From positions 274,511 through 338,510 of IMG/VR virus record IMGVR_UViG_3300046786_000293: a stretch of DNA of 64,000 nucleotides, one strand, 5' to 3'. The notes beneath the pieces are model-generated. The model made no database searches. It worked only from the letters and a program-made list of their open reading frames with translations, and was not told the origin of the DNA. Source of the DNA: a virus. Lineage: Duplodnaviria; Caudoviricetes. Shown piece after piece: positions 2,410 through 18,506 of this stretch. The position numbers were made by a program, and so were the translations under genes. The stretch's first letter is position 1. Each line of letters begins with the position of its first letter.

Positions 2410-3276
2410 TTATTTGCCCCAACCATTGCCCCAAAGGTCAACGTGTAAGCGAGGACTGTAGTAGTATCCTCGACTACATGCCCAGTCTGCAACTCGCACA
2501 CGGTTTGCCGCATAAGGAGTGACAACACCACCTTGTGGCATAACGTATACAACACCAGTAAATCCGCCTGCTCTAAATTCTTTTACAGCACGCTCTACTT
2601 CTGCAAAGTGTTCTTCTGTTTCTACAACAAACTTAAGATAAACGGTGCCTAGATTTTGATAACTGGCCACAATATCAGGACAAATTGCTTCCTCCCACTT
2701 TTCGCCGCTTGCACTTAGTTTGGCACTTACACTGAATGTGACTTCTCTCTTAAAGTCTATACCAGGCAGTTGCCACAGTAATAGATATTCTGCAAATTTA
2801 TCTTGCAGACGTTGTGTGCCGTTTGTTTCAAATGTGATATTACGAAGATCCTGCATACCTTCGCGACTTAGCAATTCTTCGTAAGCACGTTGCCAACCCA
2901 GTAGCGGCTCACCGCCTGTAATAACAAGATGTACATCGTTACCGTTGTCTTGCACCCACTTGTGATTGGGTGTTAGTGCAAGCATTTTGTCTACTAGTTC
3001 TTTAGTATCATAATTTGGGCTTAGTTCTTTGAATGCGGGGTGCCAGGATGCATAGCTATCACAGCCGGTGTTGACAAGAGGCAGCTCTTCAAATGTTTTA
3101 TAAAGGTGTATGTTCTTTGCCACCTCGTCGGCTTCTTTGCTCTTACTACCAGGAGCGCAGCCAAAGCCTGCACACGTAAAGTTGCATCCAAACGTTCGAA
3201 GGAAAACGCTAGGAACACCAACAAAACGACCTTCGCCCTGTGCAGAGTAGAATAGTTCACTTACTTTAATCTTCAT
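2410..3276 (-). CDS. queE: 7-carboxy-7-deazaguanine synthase (radical SAM)
   Basis: ELFYSAQGEG, VFLRTFGCNFTC, CDS, VITGGEPLL, ETNGT, SAKL, KFVV, YVMPQ, RLHVDLWG. Confidence 0.92.
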   Translation of the reverse strand: MKIKVSELFYSAQGEGRFVGVPSVFLRTFGCNFTCAGFGCAPGSKSKEADEVAKNIHLYKTFEELPLVNTGCDSYASWHPAFKELSPNYDTKELVDKMLALTPNHKWVQDNGNDVHLVITGGEPLLGWQRAYEELLSREGMQDLRNITFETNGTQRLQDKFAEYLLLWQLPGIDFKREVTFSVSAKLSASGEKWEEAICPDIVASYQNLGTVYLKFVVETEEHFAEVERAVKEFRAGGFTGVVYVMPQGGVVTPYAANRVRVADWACSRGYYYSPRLHVDLWGNGWGK

Positions 3277-3541
3277 ATATTTTTGACCAGAGTCTTAATT
3301 TATCTTTTTTGGCTTGTTTTGCTTGTTCAAGCCTTTCCCATGATAATACATTCTGTTCTACTAGAATGTCAATCATAGCCAATACATCACCTATTTCATT
3401 TTCTAGCATCGTTGAATGAGTCAACCCTGTTTTATAGTGTTGACTATCAACACCAAACCTGCGACATTTACTAACTTCAACGATAACTTCAGCACATTCT
3501 TCTTGAAGAATGTCTAGTGTTTCTTGGATTTTTGGATTCAT
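3266..3541 (-). CDS. mazG: MazG-like NTP pyrophosphohydrolase
   Basis: LQEECAEVI...ENEIGDVL acidic helical motif. Confidence 0.75.
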   Translation of the reverse strand: MNPKIQETLDILQEECAEVIVEVSKCRRFGVDSQHYKTGLTHSTMLENEIGDVLAMIDILVEQNVLSWERLEQAKQAKKDKLRLWSKIYED

Positions 3542-3729: not shown

Positions 3730-3921
3730 TCACCAATGTCGAATAACACCTGCAATGATAAAACAGTTTGTTATAATGTATGATAGCACAATGGCAGTAC
3801 GAATGCAAGCAATACGGTCTGCTTCCGAATCCGTACTGCCTGCTTTTTCTCCAAGGGCTTTCGCCCAAAGTCTCCAAATTTTAGTTGCTACTTTGAACAA
3901 TGTTTTCGTTCTCGTCGACAT
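3730..3921 (-). CDS. small membrane hypothetical protein
   Basis: 63 aa with a C-terminal hydrophobic helix. Confidence 0.55.
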   Translation of the reverse strand: MSTRTKTLFKVATKIWRLWAKALGEKAGSTDSEADRIACIRTAIVLSYIITNCFIIAGVIRHW

Positions 3922-4522
3922 TAACTTTCTTTTGCAAGAAATTTAGCAACACACCATATGCGGGCAGAATAACAATCAGGCTAACAATAATTTTGCTAAT
4001 GCTATTGTTGGTAGCAACAGTAAACCAATTAGCAGCCATAAATTCATTTGCACCTTTGTAGAATGCTGTGAAGAAGAAGGTGTATGTGTCGATGAACGTG
4101 CTTACGATACTACTTAGAGTAGGAGCAATCCACCAGCTATTATACTTCTCTCGAAAATATTGGAATACATAGACATCTAACAAGTTAGAAACAAAGTATG
4201 CCATACCCGATCCAAGACCAATTCGGAATGCGACGCTATCAGGTGCTCCGCCCAATTTGACTACTGCCATACTAACTAATATGGCAGGAATAAATGCTAA
4301 CGCAATAACTGCACGGCCTGTTTGTTTACCTAGCAATCGAACAGTCAGGTCTGTTAAAACAACAACTAACGGAAAGGTAAATGCCGCTACTGCTAGAGGA
4401 TTTCCAAAAACGTCAATTTTAAATTGAACAACATAGTTACTAATAGCAATAATGATGATATGAGCTAACATCAACTTATACGCTAATGCACGGTCTACGC
4501 CGGCTAAAATTTTGTCAAACAT
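3881..4522 (-). CDS. yhhQ: queuosine-precursor (preQ0/preQ1) transporter, VUT/YhhQ family
   Basis: ISNYVVQ, AAFTFP, LTDLTVR, SNLLDVYVFQ, SIVSTFIDTYTFF; multiple TM helices; located in the que cluster. Confidence 0.88.
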   Translation of the reverse strand: MFDKILAGVDRALAYKLMLAHIIIIAISNYVVQFKIDVFGNPLAVAAFTFPLVVVLTDLTVRLLGKQTGRAVIALAFIPAILVSMAVVKLGGAPDSVAFRIGLGSGMAYFVSNLLDVYVFQYFREKYNSWWIAPTLSSIVSTFIDTYTFFFTAFYKGANEFMAANWFTVATNNSISKIIVSLIVILPAYGVLLNFLQKKVNVDENENIVQSSN

Positions 4523-4533
4523 ATTTTTACTCC

Positions 4534-4866
4534 TTAGTGATTACGTTTGCCGTCAAACACACATACAAAATACAATGTATGAGAATTTGACTTATTATGA
4601 ACACGATGGAACACACCGTCTTCAATTAGGACAACGTCGCCTCCTTGAACGGCCAAACGCTTGTCATCTAATTCCATTTCGCCAACGCCAGAAATAAAAT
4701 AATATACTTCTTCTTGTCCGGCATGGCTATGTCCTCTTGTACTTTGTCCAGGTTTTAAATCTGTTGAACTTAGTACAAGATTCTTTAGTGTTTTGTTGTC
4801 TTTAAGAACATAAGTTTCATTGTCTTTAACAATGTCACCACCTATATCATATATGCTATATTTCAT
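4534..4866 (-). CDS. cupin domain protein
   Basis: GHSHAGQEEVYYFISGVG and IEDGVFHRVHN cupin motifs 1 and 2. Confidence 0.85.
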   Translation of the reverse strand: MKYSIYDIGGDIVKDNETYVLKDNKTLKNLVLSSTDLKPGQSTRGHSHAGQEEVYYFISGVGEMELDDKRLAVQGGDVVLIEDGVFHRVHNKSNSHTLYFVCVFDGKRNH

Positions 4867-4872
4867 AATAAT

Positions 4873-5526
4873 TTAAAATTCTAAAACAAAATGTGAAGTT
4901 TTTCTATAAACAGTACGTTTTGCCTTTAAACTCATGTTATCAAATAATTCGTCGTCGATTATTCTACAATGCATTTTTTCTGCGTCAGGCCATCCGCTTC
5001 CAATTGCTATAGGATGCATACCTGGATGATTCGCAATACACATTAGTCCACTAAATTGTTTACAGATATTATCCCACACAGGCTCGAATTCTTCTTCGAG
5101 TATATGTTCAATTGATTCTACCATGAGAACTGTGTCAAATTTTGAAAAATCTGCTACAAAATTTTTAACATTGGTTTCTATGACCTTTGGCGGAATAAAC
5201 TCGTCTCCAAAGAACTGTTTACCAGTTCGATCAAACCAATTCTGAATGTTGATTGCTATATCCACCGCAGTAACAGGAATACCTAATTTGGATAAAACAC
5301 ATGATATTTCTCCTCTGCCAGGCCCTATTTCCAATACATGGTTGGGAGTTCTAGTTTTATAATTATTTAAAAATTGCAACTGATCTTCAAGTGTATTACA
5401 CTCGATTAAATCATAAATGCCAAATGCATAACACAAGGCCGGAAACTGATCATTCGACCTTAACATTTTTTTATTCCAATTATCTAAATCAGAATAAAAA
5501 TACCCTTCTTGGTATGCAAAACTCAT
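4873..5526 (-). CDS. class I SAM-dependent methyltransferase
   Basis: VLEIGPGRG motif I, VTAVDIA, ESIEHI; ATGA overlap with the queD stop. Confidence 0.8.
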   Translation of the reverse strand: MSFAYQEGYFYSDLDNWNKKMLRSNDQFPALCYAFGIYDLIECNTLEDQLQFLNNYKTRTPNHVLEIGPGRGEISCVLSKLGIPVTAVDIAINIQNWFDRTGKQFFGDEFIPPKVIETNVKNFVADFSKFDTVLMVESIEHILEEEFEPVWDNICKQFSGLMCIANHPGMHPIAIGSGWPDAEKMHCRIIDDELFDNMSLKAKRTVYRKTSHFVLEF

Positions 5527-6026
5527 GCAAATAAATCCTCGTTCCATTCACGATGACCTTCACGGAATGCCATATTGCTTTGTGTTTCACGCACCTCTAC
5601 ACGATAGCACCATAGTCGTTGTGCTTCTCCTGGCCCCCACAGGTCAGGTATATAAACACCATTGACATACTTGTAAAGCATGTCGGCCAGGCCTTCGCAA
5701 CCCAGTCTCGGTAAGACTACAACCTTGGCCATTTTCTTGGCTTCTAGTAGTTTGTATGTTTCCATTTCAGGATCATCTTGTGCCACAATCAACGTGTGGT
5801 CGAACATATCCTCTAATAACTTCTTCAAGTCTTTCAATCCACCGTAGTCAGCGGCCCAGTTGCGTACATCTAGGTCATTAGTACCAAAGTAAAACTTCAT
5901 TGAAAAACTGTAGCCATGAATTAAGTTACAGTGACTATCGGCACGCCATTGACGATACGCACAGGGAAATGCGTCGTGATATTCTTTGGTGCTTGTGTAT
6001 TTGTAGGTAATTGTTTGATTTGCCAT
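5523..6026 (-). CDS. queD: 6-carboxy-tetrahydropterin synthase (QueD/PTPS), variant active site
   Basis: HCNLIHGY, DYGGLKDLK, FDHTLIV, EGLAD, VEVRET; T-fold signature. Confidence 0.85.
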   Translation of the reverse strand: MANQTITYKYTSTKEYHDAFPCAYRQWRADSHCNLIHGYSFSMKFYFGTNDLDVRNWAADYGGLKDLKKLLEDMFDHTLIVAQDDPEMETYKLLEAKKMAKVVVLPRLGCEGLADMLYKYVNGVYIPDLWGPGEAQRLWCYRVEVRETQSNMAFREGHREWNEDLFA

Positions 6027-6065
6027 CTCTAGTCTCCTTTATGTTAGGTAGCAAGTTTGATGGTA

Positions 6066-6103
6066 TGCAGAATCTTTATAGAGGGATGAATGCCAAGTCC
6101 TCT
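6066..6103 (-). ncRNA. candidate preQ1-I-like riboswitch aptamer in the queD leader
   Basis: AGAGG / 14-nt loop ending CAUC / CCUCU stem, then an AUAAA tail and possible loop-tail pairing (GCA/UGC); directly upstream of the queD RBS. Confidence 0.5.
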
Positions 6104-6111
6104 TGAGTAAG

Positions 6112-6117
6112 TATTTA
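6112..6117 (-). promoter_or_regulatory. late-promoter-like TAAATA box
   Basis: AATAAATA overlapping the PRTase stop codon, just 5' of the candidate riboswitch. Confidence 0.5.
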
Positions 6118-6624
6118 TTCCCACCAACGCTCGTAGGGAAAAACAATCCATTCTTTTTTGCTTTTAGTAATCTCTTCGCCACTAAAGTCTATGGTAACGT
6201 GGGACTTACTGCTAACGTTATCGTATACTACTGCAAATTTTACATTATGATTCCAAACATCTTTCCAACTTGGATCCTTGGGTAAACAACTAGATTGCCA
6301 ATCTTCGATAAGCCAATTAATTGTTTTACCTGTATCATTGATGTCGTCGACAATGAGAATCTTTTTGCGAGCAGTTACCTCAGGCTTGCCGTATTCGTAG
6401 CCAAATGCATCTTCAGCCATCCACAAATTACTTTCGTTAGTTTCGGGCTTGCTGGTTACATGTAGTGCATACATAGGAATATCAAAATAGTGACTAATCA
6501 TAACTGCGGGAATAAGACCACCGCGAGTTAGTCCTACAATATAATCGGGGCGCCAATTACTAATAGCAATGCTTCGACAAATTTTAGCGACCCGGCTATT
6601 ATATTCTTTATTAGTAAGATCCAT
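6115..6624 (-). CDS. type I phosphoribosyltransferase (xanthine/guanine PRT-like)
   Basis: VGLTRGGLIPA and ILIVDDINDTGKT PRPP-binding loop; WIVFPYE. Confidence 0.88.
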   Translation of the reverse strand: MDLTNKEYNSRVAKICRSIAISNWRPDYIVGLTRGGLIPAVMISHYFDIPMYALHVTSKPETNESNLWMAEDAFGYEYGKPEVTARKKILIVDDINDTGKTINWLIEDWQSSCLPKDPSWKDVWNHNVKFAVVYDNVSSKSHVTIDFSGEEITKSKKEWIVFPYERWWE

Positions 6625-10013: not shown

Positions 10014-10019
10014 TATTTA
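10014..10019 (-). promoter_or_regulatory. late-promoter-like TAAATA box
   Basis: GATAAATA; its TAA is the folE stop codon. Confidence 0.45.
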
Positions 10020-10745
10020 TCGTGGTGCAAATTCTTGTTGGAGCTTGATATTGTCAAAGAATTCTTTCTTTGTGCCTGCATCATCTTTAAAAGCACCTCT
10101 TAGAACAGTGGTTTGCGTGAGACTAGAGTGCGCCATAATGCCGCGATTTTCACAGCACCCGTGCGTGGCTTGGATGTAGACCGCAACATCCTTGGAACCA
10201 GTAGCAAACTCAATCTCTCTTGCAATGTCCATGCACAACTCTTCTTGTAGTGTGCCTCGACGAGCGCACCATTGAGCGATGCGACTATACTTCGATAACC
10301 CAATAAGTTTAGGTCCAGCAATAATACCAATATACGCAACACCCGAAACAGGTTGGTGATGATGGCTACACATACTCTTGAGTTCGCTACGAACAACAAG
10401 CATTCCGTCATACTTACCTTCACTATCATTAGGGAACGCAGTAGCATTGGGACTTTGTTCATATCTACCTGCCATAATCTCATTGAAATACATTTTAGCA
10501 AGTCTACGTGCTGTACCTTGACTATTAGGATCAGTCTCTCGATCAATTAGTAGTCGATCAAGCACTAATTCAAATGCTTCTGTTGCTTCGTCGATAAGTT
10601 GGTCCATATGAAACTCATCAACATAATCACTGATGTTGTCTCCAGCCCAGAAACGTTTACCTTCTCGTTTCATTTTAAAACGAAGTACATCTGCCAGGTA
10701 CGCTTCTTCGTAACCACCTGTGTCTAATTCCTTACCGATATCCAT
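10017..10745 (-). CDS. folE: GTP cyclohydrolase I
   Basis: SMCSHH, GLSKYSRIAQW, RGTLQE, ATHGCCENRG, EFF. Confidence 0.95.
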   Translation of the reverse strand: MDIGKELDTGGYEEAYLADVLRFKMKREGKRFWAGDNISDYVDEFHMDQLIDEATEAFELVLDRLLIDRETDPNSQGTARRLAKMYFNEIMAGRYEQSPNATAFPNDSEGKYDGMLVVRSELKSMCSHHHQPVSGVAYIGIIAGPKLIGLSKYSRIAQWCARRGTLQEELCMDIAREIEFATGSKDVAVYIQATHGCCENRGIMAHSSLTQTTVLRGAFKDDAGTKKEFFDNIKLQQEFAPR

Positions 10746-12621: not shown

Positions 12622-13071
12622 TTAGATTTTAACACTAAGATTAGGTCGGTGAGTTTCATATTTAATAAGTGCGCCGTTTTCACCATCTTCAGCCACTTCA
12701 ATCCAAACTGCCCGATTGGGATACCGTTCAGCAATTTGTAGATATAAGTCATCTGCAATCATTTCGCAGGATTTGTAGTCGAGTTTGAGGATTCCGCCTG
12801 CGTAGAGATTTTCGAGCCAGCGTTTGAATTGGATGAACTCGATGTCTCTGTCATTGTGTACAACATCAATCCACACCCGGAAATGGAAGATATGGCGGTG
12901 AGGACTGCCAAGGAAACTAACGTCATACTCATCGCCCGTCGCAAGTTCGGGTGCTGTTGCGGCTGCTGGATAGCAGTGTATTCCTTCTTTGCGGAAGGTA
13001 ATCCAGATTTTTCGTTCTGCATGTTGCTTGATTCTTTCAACAGTTTCTCGGTCAGTTGCGTTCATTTTCAT
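12622..13071 (-). CDS. dpdL: QueD-paralogue T-fold protein, DpdL-like (putative CDG decarboxylase)
   Basis: EGIH...LGSPHRHIF matches LxxxHRHxF in place of the QueD CxxxHGH motif; DIEFI. Confidence 0.6.
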   Translation of the reverse strand: MKMNATDRETVERIKQHAERKIWITFRKEGIHCYPAAATAPELATGDEYDVSFLGSPHRHIFHFRVWIDVVHNDRDIEFIQFKRWLENLYAGGILKLDYKSCEMIADDLYLQIAERYPNRAVWIEVAEDGENGALIKYETHRPNLSVKI

Positions 13072-15822: not shown

Positions 15823-16957
15823 AAGGATTCTCCAGATTAAATGTTTGACTAAAACTTTGATTTCGAGATAGATCTAGATCTTTTGTAAATTCTGCAAATT
15901 TTTCGACAATCTTTGGTTCGTCACAGGTATTTAATACATTTAATATATTTCTTAAATCATTAATACTGTGTTCTGGGTTGTTTGTTACAGCAGCTAATAA
16001 TTGTATAGATTTTTCTAATTCTTGTCTAGCCCGATTGGATAACTCGCCAGTTAATACATACGGGTTCAAACGTTTAGGCCATTGGCATGTACCAAACCAA
16101 AGTTCTAATGGTCCTTTAGCAAGTTTTTTGGTTTCTATAAAGAACTCTACTACACGACTAATATCTAATACACTATACGCACTGAGGGTTGCATTCATTG
16201 CGACGCTATGCCCTAATTCTAAAATACTTTTTATATTTTTAATAATCACTGGCCAATTGGAGCCGTATCTGATATATTCAGCTGATTTTTCAACGCCATC
16301 TATACTTAATGTCCAATGTACTCTTTTAAAGTGTTTAATTACTTCTAGCCAATCTTGATTCATAACACTACAATTAGTTGTTATTAAAATTTCACAATTA
16401 GTGTTTCCGATCGCAATTAATTCTTCTAATATTTTTAAATTGTCTTTAATTAGTAAAGGTTCGCCGCCCGTAAACAATATTCTATTAACATTACTTAGAT
16501 TATTTTTAATATCTTCTGCAATGTTTTCATATAAGTTTTTTCTAGGTAGTATATTATTATAATATTTCTGAAGAGAAACATTCTCAGTTACTTCTCGTCC
16601 AATACTAGAACTGAAATCAGGACTACACATCCTACAACTAAAATTACATAGATTATTATATCTTAAATCGTAGTACTGTATTTTATGTTCTATATTATCT
16701 TTGTTAAGTAAAGGATAATCTCTTATAGCACTTTGCCTTACGCTGTTCAACCCTTTACTTTCCAACTCGTAGCAACCGTTACAGTGACTGTGCGGTGTGT
16801 CATTTAAAATATTATTTTTAACTTCTTGTAGTTCGGTACTATGTTCAAATTCTGAGGGACTACAAGATTCTTGATAGCCACTGTTACAACACATTTTAAC
16901 ACCAGTTGTTGTTACAAACTGGTGAATCCAAGGTAAAGGGCACCAAACTTTAGACAT
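15815..16957 (-). CDS. radical SAM protein with an N-terminal SPASM/twitch-like Cys cluster
   Basis: CNFSCRMC, FTGGEPLL, LSIDG; N-terminal CPLPW..CC..CNGC. Confidence 0.85.
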   Translation of the reverse strand: MSKVWCPLPWIHQFVTTTGVKMCCNSGYQESCSPSEFEHSTELQEVKNNILNDTPHSHCNGCYELESKGLNSVRQSAIRDYPLLNKDNIEHKIQYYDLRYNNLCNFSCRMCSPDFSSSIGREVTENVSLQKYYNNILPRKNLYENIAEDIKNNLSNVNRILFTGGEPLLIKDNLKILEELIAIGNTNCEILITTNCSVMNQDWLEVIKHFKRVHWTLSIDGVEKSAEYIRYGSNWPVIIKNIKSILELGHSVAMNATLSAYSVLDISRVVEFFIETKKLAKGPLELWFGTCQWPKRLNPYVLTGELSNRARQELEKSIQLLAAVTNNPEHSINDLRNILNVLNTCDEPKIVEKFAEFTKDLDLSRNQSFSQTFNLENPYV

Positions 16958-18506
16958 TTTGTTCTAATTCATCTAGAGCAGACTCGTCTAATCCGCTGTC
17001 GTCGATGTGATGTTCTTCGGGTTCGACTTGATCAAACAAGGAATTAAACATAGTACCAGCGTTAATAGTTTTCTTACCTACTGCTCCACGAGTACCAATG
17101 ATACTTAACCAATATCTATTGTAGTGTTCGATAAGTTTTTCTGCACGACCACGATCACTAGTAGCAAAGATATCATTAACAATATCTCGGAAGAATGTGC
17201 GATCATAGACTCTAAATCCTTTCTTATCCGATGTAGTTGCAACTAACATCTGCGGATATGAGCCGGCGTCATATTGTCTATTTGCTTCTTGCACCGCATG
17301 AATGTGCGTCCATACGTTATGTCCCATCTGTAAAGTATAACTAAAACTGTCCCAGCTGGTTCGACCTTCTTTACCAATTTTGTTTAAGTCTCCGGGTTTG
17401 TAGTGACAAACATCGTTAACAAGCAATCGTTCACTGACTGGACTTTCTAAGAAAGTATCAAATATCTTGTCTTGCAGTACTGCATCTCTAAATGTACGAG
17501 AATCTGTAGCATACTTTTTATTATCTATGCTAGGTTGCATTTGATAACTCCATTTAGCACGATCCGGAGTAACTACATCATAGTAAATTTGTCCATTAGC
17601 AGTTGCTAAAAATGGACTCGCACAGTCGAAACTAATAGTAAAGTTTTCATTGTGATACTTACGCACCGCACGTTGAACATCGGTAAGCAAAGTTGCCCAT
17701 TCGAGTTTACTTGTGCCTAAGAAATGCATCCAGTCATGTAAGCCTGGTTCTAGCAATCCATCGAATCGTAACGCCACAAGTCTACGCAATAGCAAGTGAA
17801 CATCACACATATTTTGTCCACCCATAGCCCAACCTTCGAATGGCTGTGCGTATTGCTTAGGATCGCAGTATTTTTTCATACGTTCATACCAATCGTCAGC
17901 ATCAGTGTGATTTTCACCTTGTAGAACGTTTAAGAACTTGCAACGACCAGTTCGTTTACGCATGAAGTATTCATTATTAATATATGTAGCGTCGACTGCT
18001 TCCTGATATGTGCTAATACCAGTAGCACGTTGACCTGCAGGACTACGTGCAACCCACGCAGGAATATCCAAAATCATACCTCGATCCATATAAGCATCCA
18101 TCCATGCAAGAACTTGTTCACGTTTCTTTTGTGCTTTTGGACAATTAGGATCTTTCCAGTCGCCTTCCCATACACCCTTACCAATTTGAAATCCGCCCGA
18201 GTCCCCTAGTACAAAACTATTAGGATCACGATTGCGAACCATATCTTCCTTGGCATCAAACTTGTTTACATCTAAATTGGCATGACCTGCACTATACAAT
18301 GCCCATTTATAAGGGAAATAGGCTTCTTTAGGATTAAGCCAATTAAGTCCTTCCATGCCATTTTCGAACTTAGCTGGCATACGTTGGGCATCTACGTAAT
18401 TGGGGTCGTGCCGTTGCTTGCCTACGTAGGTTGCATAGAACCCGCTTAACGCTGGCAAGAACACAGCATAGTCATTTTGTTTGCTGGTTAAATTATCAAT
18501 TCTCAT
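16950..18506 (-). CDS. dpdA: DpdA-like 7-deazaguanine DNA transglycosylase (TGT superfamily)
   Basis: GDSGGFQ, MILDIP, NVLQG, WAMGG, MHFLG, SFDCASP and HN TGT motifs; next to folE/queD/queE. Confidence 0.8.
   Translation of the reverse strand: MRIDNLTSKQNDYAVFLPALSGFYATYVGKQRHDPNYVDAQRMPAKFENGMEGLNWLNPKEAYFPYKWALYSAGHANLDVNKFDAKEDMVRNRDPNSFVLGDSGGFQIGKGVWEGDWKDPNCPKAQKKREQVLAWMDAYMDRGMILDIPAWVARSPAGQRATGISTYQEAVDATYINNEYFMRKRTGRCKFLNVLQGENHTDADDWYERMKKYCDPKQYAQPFEGWAMGGQNMCDVHLLLRRLVALRFDGLLEPGLHDWMHFLGTSKLEWATLLTDVQRAVRKYHNENFTISFDCASPFLATANGQIYYDVVTPDRAKWSYQMQPSIDNKKYATDSRTFRDAVLQDKIFDTFLESPVSERLLVNDVCHYKPGDLNKIGKEGRTSWDSFSYTLQMGHNVWTHIHAVQEANRQYDAGSYPQMLVATTSDKKGFRVYDRTFFRDIVNDIFATSDRGRAEKLIEHYNRYWLSIIGTRGAVGKKTINAGTMFNSLFDQVEPEEHHIDDSGLDESALDELEQNV

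Follow-up and report, generated by a model that had tools for sequence, protein, structure and literature searches.

A conserved pseudoknot in the queD leader of uncultured jumbo phages, a candidate ON-type riboswitch with a preQ1-I-like layout

What is the function of the short spacer ahead of queD in a jumbo phage that carries genes for 7-deazaguanine synthesis? The DNA analyzed here (the window, 64,000 nt) is the terminal 64 kb of a 338.5-kb jumbo-phage record in IMG/VR (IMGVR_UViG_3300046786_000293), which is 97% complete. The minus strand carries nearly all window genes, and on it an 88-nt spacer separates a phosphoribosyltransferase (PRTase) gene (6115-6624) from queD (5523-6026). An earlier, sequence-only reading had proposed a variant class I preQ1 (preQ1-I) riboswitch in this leader. 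Comparison with relatives indicates that the leader almost certainly holds a conserved cis-regulatory pseudoknot. From sequence comparison we infer ligand binding, a ligand class and an ON direction, and we consider a translational small-molecule ON riboswitch the probable identity of the element. The sequence-only reading is thus partly supported, being right in kind but wrong on pairing details, family membership, and regulatory direction.

Several parts of the leader are as first described. On the minus strand, a promoter-type box (ATAAATA, 6118-6112) lies before a 5-bp stem (AGAGG, 6103-6099, with CCUCU, 6084-6080). The stem arms enclose a 14-nt loop, ACUUGGCAUUCAUC, and the A-rich tail AUAAAGA follows CCUCU and runs into UUCUGC. 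The queD start at 6026 places the leader before a deazaguanine gene. The features of the leader, in transcript order, are as follows.

6112-6118, minus strand: ATAAATA promoter-like box, sharing nucleotides with the stop codon (TAA) of the PRTase gene upstream and ending 8 nt before P1
6099-6103, minus strand: P1 5' strand, AGAGG, pairing with 6080-6084
6095-6098, minus strand: loop L1, ACUU; the family consensus is NCUU with 0-9 variable nt after it, CU being nearly invariant
6087-6094, minus strand: P2 5' strand, GGCAU (outer), U6089 (mismatch), C6088 and A6087 (inner)
6085-6086, minus strand: loop L2, UC, with C6085 at the position of the preQ1-I specificity cytosine
6080-6084, minus strand: P1 3' strand, CCUCU, pairing with 6099-6103
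6070-6079, minus strand: L3 linker of 10 nt, AUAAAGA plus UUC; the family consensus is WUAYAAA plus YUC
6061-6069, minus strand: P2 3' strand, U6069 and G6068 (inner), C6067 (mismatch), AUACC(A) (outer)
6059-6063, minus strand: strand pairing with the start codon (anti-AUG strand), CCAUC, which pairs with GAUGG (6027-6023) in the minimum free energy (MFE) fold
6023-6037, minus strand: ribosome site, with GGAG (6037-6034), a 7-nt spacer, AUG (6026-6024), and G6023 of the second codon

Taken alone, the leader does not fold better than chance. Its 106 nt have an MFE of -14.6 kcal/mol, compared with -13.8 +/- 2.9 kcal/mol in shuffles (z = -0.29). The reality of the stem rests on relatives. These were collected in two scans of viral contigs. 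A QueD-based search gave more than 594 relatives, of which 80 were retained, and most of their leaders carry the element. A second scan of all viral contigs used a degenerate motif pattern alone, ignored queD, and added 80 further loci. Under strict parsing the motif is present in 144 of the 160 viral loci, representing 107 distinct aptamers. A QueD homologue directly follows 138 of the 144 instances. The remaining six stand before another open reading frame (ORF; 85-243 aa) or before no called ORF, with a QueD match further along the locus. The motif-only scan returned just queD leaders, save two GC-rich chance matches. Those two are among eight pattern matches that could not be parsed, the other six being true copies with a 4-bp P1. 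In these six (L122, L138, L142, L148, L151, and L165) the first P1 pair is broken, leaving GAGG/CCUC or GUGG/CCAC, and five of them precede QueD genes with a different N-terminus (MAK.YSTK.Y). The element is single-copy in the 338-kb phage genome, where it scores 56 bits and the next best match scores 13.8 bits.

An alignment of queD leaders from relatives, a check that had been set beforehand, revealed covariation in both helices. In P1 all five pairs are 100% paired in 52 distinct relatives, and two positions are compensated: the first pair changes from A-U to U-A, and the third changes from C-G to A-U or U-A. The versions seen are AGCGG/CCGCU, AGAGG/CCUCU, AGUGG/CCACU, and UGCGG/CCGCA, with GGCGG/CCGCU added in the larger set. 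At the top of P1, the two G-C pairs never vary (52/52 sequences), and RNAalifold independently predicts this helix.

The second helix has a different register from the one first suggested. The earlier loop-tail pairs, GCA/UGC and AUC/GAU, give way to a covarying helix in which GGCAU-U-CA (6094-6087) pairs with UG-C-AUACC (6069-6062); in general terms, a loop reading (outer)-U-C-A faces a tail reading U-G-C-(outer) after the invariant YUC. The GCA/UGC register was rejected on two grounds. The loop base varies opposite an invariant tail UGC, and where the tail is CGC, the compensation sits in UCA -> UCG and not in GGCN. P2 has 6-9 layers across the family. Its U.C opposition and its C-G pair are both invariant, and the inner A-U pair becomes G-C in 12 of the 107 aptamers (95:12) with no mixed combination, a result obtained with no pairing filter. 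The outer 4-7 pairs covary freely, with combinations such as GGCA/UGCC, GGCG/CGCC, GGCU/AGCC, GACGU/AUGUC, GACGC/GUGUC, and GGCAU/AUGCC.

Statistics for P2 were taken from a gapless 35-column alignment of 92 distinct sequences. In it, 81.5% of P2 cells are paired (61.8% in shuffles) and the covariation score is 0.543 (0.216 in shuffles), values that 0 of 500 shuffles reached in either case, but these controls overstate significance since the sequences are mutually related. Double changes occur in seven of the eight P2 pairs. Sliding the partner strand lowers pairing to 42% or less, and with tails permuted between sequences the outer pairs number 3.34 +/- 0.125, compared with 4.83 observed. G.U pairs are frequent in P2 and would be A.C on the opposite strand; therefore the RNA is in the sense of queD, and a function on the plus strand is ruled out.

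The unpaired positions are as constrained as the helices. Invariant unpaired positions (CU of L1, the U.C mismatch, C of L2, and the A's plus UC of L3) lie beside freely varying spacers. The 3' end of L2 is C in 107/107 distinct aptamers (UC in 76, CC in 14, AC in 10, and others in 7), and three A positions and the final UC of L3 are invariant in the 92 sequences. The first nucleotide of L1 is U, C, or A in comparable numbers. These observations agree with generic features of riboswitches, namely a 5' leader position, covarying helices, invariant unpaired positions, and a link to one pathway. The window copy itself has an additional mismatch in P2, C6092 with A6064, beside the U.C opposition; a relative (L044) with the same GGCAU loop strand has the tail AUGCC and pairs perfectly.

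The 3' strand of P2 also connects the pseudoknot to the ribosome site. In the window C6063, C6062, and A6061 are common to the anti-AUG strand and the P2 3' strand. Equivalents of this helix in other platform types are GUCAUC/GAUGGC, GUCAUUG/CAAUGGC, and GUCAUC/GAUGAC. In other members a CCUAUG/CAUAGG hairpin buries the Shine-Dalgarno (SD) GG and shares CC with P2; its exact arms occur in 60 of 119 distinct leaders. Further platforms use UGUCU/AGACA and ACUCC/GGAGU. One aptamer is thus joined to at least four expression platforms (the SD hairpin, two AUG helices, and several others), all of which overlap or abut the P2 3' strand, and several competing platforms on one aptamer is the usual signature of a riboswitch. 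The platform proposed earlier, a helix of CUCUA with UAGAG, is not upheld. UAGAG stays constant when the P1 3' strand reads CGCUU, CGCUA, or CACUU, and the pairing is found in just 2 of 28 distinct leaders of the window's platform type. In a divergent copy (L100:7440-7530, minus strand) aptamer and sequestering helix do not overlap directly: P2 contains an internal loop that is asymmetric, and roughly 13 additional nt separate it from an anti-SD helix of 7 bp (CUUCUAU/AUAGGAG). Readings of the leader as a terminator or as a leader peptide were rejected, as it has no U tract and no suitable ORF, respectively.

Since the anti-SD or anti-AUG strand shares nucleotides with the P2 3' strand, formation of the pseudoknot should free the start site, which is ON logic. 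Energetics were computed with the P2 strands constrained as engaged, as the cost of opening positions -13 to +3. Over 119 distinct leaders the mean cost falls from 7.3 to 4.0 kcal/mol with P2 engaged, a drop of 3.3 kcal/mol; the drop exceeds 1 kcal/mol in 91% of the leaders, and in the window the cost falls from 8.1 to 5.2 kcal/mol, all in an energy model that leaves out the tertiary contacts of the pseudoknot. The mechanism we propose is as follows. The queD leader would form a small H-type pseudoknot aptamer with an ATAAATA promoter of its own, a few nt ahead of P1. When the effector is absent, the P2 3' strand would be taken by the downstream helix that buries the AUG, or the SD GG in other family members. 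The effector, which may be a guanine-faced heterocycle read by the invariant C beside P1, would stabilize the pseudoknot and so capture the shared nucleotides. With its G-C pairs lost, the sequestering helix would then expose the ribosome site of queD, together with that of the coupled downstream genes.

Several points weigh against this interpretation, among them the relatedness behind the shuffle controls and the tertiary contacts missing from the energy model. P2 of the window is weak, with a nearest-neighbor duplex energy of -2.9 kcal/mol compared with -5.9 kcal/mol for the AUG helix. The L1 of queD leaders is at least 4 nt long, and its first base, the equivalent of U6 in preQ1-I, is variable while CU at positions 2-3 is conserved. 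It would be unusual for a biosynthetic gene to be switched ON by what it makes, and either the direction or the ligand guess may therefore be mistaken. Finally, invariant unpaired nucleotides and a conserved fold suit a protein as well as a ligand.

This last point leads to a first alternative, a translational operator worked by a protein. Some RNA-binding protein of the phage or its host, perhaps an enzyme of the pathway, would recognize the conserved loops and tip the equilibrium between pseudoknot and sequestering helix. Phage translational operators do exist, as with RegA and gene 32 of T4, so this device is one that phages use. However, no candidate protein is consistently adjacent to the element, the size and layout match small-molecule pseudoknot aptamers, and a single genomic copy tied to one metabolic gene leaves no regulon. 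We regard a protein-operated switch as unlikely.

A second alternative is that the leader is a divergent preQ1-I riboswitch of type I-like form, which would bind preQ1 or preQ0 and repress queD when 7-deazaguanine supply is high. Three classes of preQ1 riboswitch are known; a 2024 review describes gene-off (repressing) mechanisms only and does not mention phages (PMC11625349). Hallmarks of preQ1-I are a G-C floor pair, U6 in L1 as a ligand contact, and an A-rich L3 whose last A (A30) contacts the ligand (PMC11625349). A strictly conserved specificity C, numbered C17 in the Can aptamer, stands just ahead of the P1 3' strand and is preceded by U in type I, the Carnobacterium antarcticum type, which binds two stacked ligands; P2 buries SD bases, and type I has a conserved C in the tail (PMC11625349).

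Much of this is matched in the queD leader, which is a small H-type pseudoknot upstream of a queuosine/7-deazaguanine gene, so the class I layout seen in the sequence-only reading is conserved. P1 has 5 bp with an invariant G-C closing pair as pocket floor. The C directly 5' of the P1 3' strand is present in every distinct aptamer and is part of UC in 71% of them, as in type I, although its role in reading a ligand is putative. The A-rich L3 could line the minor groove of P1, and a conserved C lies just ahead of the P2 3' strand, like the tail C of type I. The run A(P2)-U-C-C(P1) could stack as pair, ligand, ligand, and pair, as in the two-ligand type I pocket. On this stacking, the element is filed as working like preQ1-I but outside that family. 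The segment AGAGG...CCUCUAUAAA, consisting of P1 and the first tail bases, presumably resembles the aptamer of Bacillus subtilis queC. Known preQ1 riboswitches also control queCDEF and yhhQ, and a yhhQ gene is part of this operon.

Against a divergent preQ1-I riboswitch stand both homology searches and architecture. Using cmscan with all 4227 families of Rfam 15, nothing was found at the gathering threshold in the window. At E <= 10 there was no match to a preQ1 model in the 351-nt stretch 5900-6250 and no relevant Rfam match in 10 relatives; weak matches to DnaX, RAGATH-26, and JPX were dismissed as noise. The preQ1-I model (RF00522) gave seven matches on the whole genome, none of them on the leader, the best being 14.1 bits elsewhere against a gathering cut-off of 39, so membership by Rfam does not hold. 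In a control search, RF00522 passed its cut-off in 1 of 14 named control genomes.

Class I preQ1 models have a short A-rich L3, about 6-8 nt in length, which leads into the P2 3' strand without a break. The L3 of queD leaders has 10 nt, with the invariant YUC between its A-rich part and P2. In addition, P2 is longer (6-9 layers) and has the fixed U.C mismatch, L2 has only 2 nt, and the first L1 base varies as described. Unlike in translational preQ1-I riboswitches, it is the anti-SD or anti-AUG strand and not the SD that coincides in part with the P2 3' strand, so that folding is predicted to open the start site; the platform implies ON, whereas known preQ1 riboswitches are OFF. The element also occurs in phages without QueC. 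A divergent preQ1-I riboswitch is therefore quite unlikely.

A third alternative is a constitutive structural leader without sensing, acting as a 5' stabilizer, a folding or standby-site element for fixed translation, or an RNA thermometer. The pseudoknot probably lies at the extreme 5' end of the transcript, and SD and AUG hairpins alone can serve as thermometers. A stabilizer, however, needs neither invariant loop nucleotides nor a P2 overlap that is kept with four different sequestering helices, and we consider this explanation improbable. A chance hairpin in an AT-rich intergenic spacer, which would agree with a window fold no better than shuffles, has a negligible probability and is refuted by conservation and covariation in more than 100 distinct sequences.

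A translational ON riboswitch, our preferred reading, can also be compared with other known classes. The preQ1-II (RF01054) and preQ1-III (RF02680) riboswitches are likewise pseudoknotted, serve the same pathway, and use a cytosine to read the guanine-like face of the ligand. They differ in being HLout pseudoknots of about 80-100 nt with other conserved cores, and cmscan found no match to them in the window or the 10 relatives. The add adenine riboswitch is an ON-type translational purine riboswitch. As in riboswitches of that type, ligand-stabilized folding is predicted here to withdraw a strand from the helix that masks the SD or AUG. The add-type riboswitches differ by a three-way junction and another ligand pocket, and they are not known from phage DNA-modification clusters.

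The genes encoded by the phage are relevant to the ligand. The genome holds FolE, QueD, and QueE, which together with YhhQ and a DpdL-like enzyme make up the gene set of the phage clade. No convincing QueC was found in it, the only candidate being a 62-residue PP-loop match at 25.5 bits, and there is no Pfam match to tRNA-guanine transglycosylase in the genome. A second T-fold protein (window 12622-13071, minus strand) carries LGSPHRHIF, which fits the signature LxxxHRHxF. Cui et al. (2023) give this signature for DpdL, the proposed decarboxylase of 7-carboxy-7-deazaguanine (CDG) in phages with 2'-deoxy-7-deazaguanine (dDG) DNA (PMC10516641). The gene set thus resembles the DpdL-type dDG pathway of Cellulophaga phage phiST, which has FolE, QueD, QueE, a second T-fold protein, and no QueC (PMC10516641). 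Five large relatives with the motif (236-382 kb) also lack a full QueC, and all five have a DpdL-like gene. Cui et al. (2023) describe no RNA regulator, and the word riboswitch is absent from their paper (PMC10516641). Full-text literature searches turned up no report of a riboswitch within a 7-deazaguanine cluster of a phage.

Given a QueC-less pathway of FolE, QueD, QueE, and DpdL, an effector made by the phage would be CDG or 7-deazaguanine. The ligand is more likely CDG, 7-deazaguanine, or a guanine or pterin precursor than preQ1 made by the phage, and the earlier guess of a ligand other than preQ1 appears to fit this type of pathway. A preQ0 or preQ1 effector could come only from the host or by way of YhhQ. 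For an ON switch, a precursor (a guanine nucleotide or the pterin substrate of QueD) would also be logical as effector.

Tentatively, and with rather less confidence than we have in an ON riboswitch as such, we suggest that the element is a new riboswitch class, so far seen only in uncultured freshwater jumbo phages. It would be a preQ1-I-like pseudoknot with a longer, mismatched P2 that senses CDG, 7-deazaguanine, or the pterin substrate or product of QueD, which are sensed by no known riboswitch, and it would turn on genes that supply a hypermodified base. If so, it would be the first preQ1-like fold of ON type, and hypermodification of phage DNA would have its first riboswitch. Should the element bind a ligand, one of the best-studied small riboswitch folds would gain a new aptamer architecture, a rewiring of that fold from OFF to ON would be shown, and phages would turn out to time or meter the synthesis of an anti-restriction DNA base by an RNA sensor. 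With a length of only about 45-50 nt and over 100 variants in nature, the aptamer is tractable in vitro, and it could become a compact sensor of 7-deazapurines.

The genes around the element are listed below.

5523-6026, minus strand: queD, 6-carboxytetrahydropterin synthase type, directly after the element (PF01242, E = 1.5e-14; phrog_2389, QueD-like, E = 3e-36)
4873-5547: methyltransferase, behind queD
4534-4866: cupin, behind queD
3881-4522: YhhQ/Vut_1 transporter, behind queD in the same operon
3266-3541: MazG-like gene, behind queD
2410-3276: queE, behind queD
10017-10745: folE

Upstream, the purine-type PRTase gene (6115-6624, minus strand) terminates within the promoter box of the queD leader; a PRTase beside the 7-deazaguanine pathway could turn a free base into a nucleotide. 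Cui et al. (2023) quote CxxxHGH as the signature of QueD; the window QueD reads CNLIHGY, or CxxxHGY, and the tyrosine would stand in for the second zinc-binding histidine. A 518-aa ORF (16950-18506, minus strand) has no match in Pfam, from which PF01702 was also run on the whole genome, or in PHROGs.

Outside uncultured viral contigs the element is rare. A DNA search of cultured phages with the locus and with the 72-nt aptamer gave no true match. The nearest cultured QueD, from Acidovorax phage ACP17 (52% identity), is encoded by a gene that overlaps the upstream gene and has no leader. A pattern scan of about 186,000 prokaryote genomes gave five matches. Two of them are real copies at 57 bits each, both on contigs of metagenome-assembled genomes (MAGs) of Bacteroidota, one from Haliscomenobacter (L218:1260-1309) and one from Chitinophagales (L220:110-163). 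The other three were rejected: two Lachnospiraceae matches lie inside a coding region without P1 and P2 partners, and one Akkermansiaceae match scores 15 bits only. Three false matches agree with the approximately four chance matches estimated. The queD cluster of the Haliscomenobacter contig is phage-like, and downstream of queD it encodes a B12-radical SAM enzyme, a C-methyltransferase, a cupin, a short-chain dehydrogenase/reductase, and a UDP-glucose dehydrogenase (sugar tailoring). The Bacteroidota copies may be mis-binned phage DNA or a hint of a Bacteroidota host.

Sequencing runs that contain the locus are labeled freshwater, estuary, aquatic, and drinking-water metagenomes; among four runs its share was mostly small. 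Contigs from RNA libraries (metatranscriptomes) that span the leader belong to relatives with 85-95% identity, and one of them extends upstream of P1 into the promoter region. These contigs reveal neither the transcript start nor regulation.

The promoter box can be assessed from its distribution. ATAAATA occurs nine times in the window (6112, 10014, 33809, 38357, 45111, 46233, 49170, 51840, and 59512), always on the minus (coding) strand, and is three-fold rarer than chance overall, the expectation over both strands being 28.8 copies. Copies compared with the ORF list sit at or near gene ends. ATAAATA is probably the (late-type) promoter box of this phage. Among 121 distinct relatives, 106 have a TAAATA, TAAGTA, or TATAAT-type box before P1, with a modal spacer of 8 nt. 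Since the copies are strand-specific and a box lies ahead of P1 in relatives, the RNA probably starts a few nt before P1.

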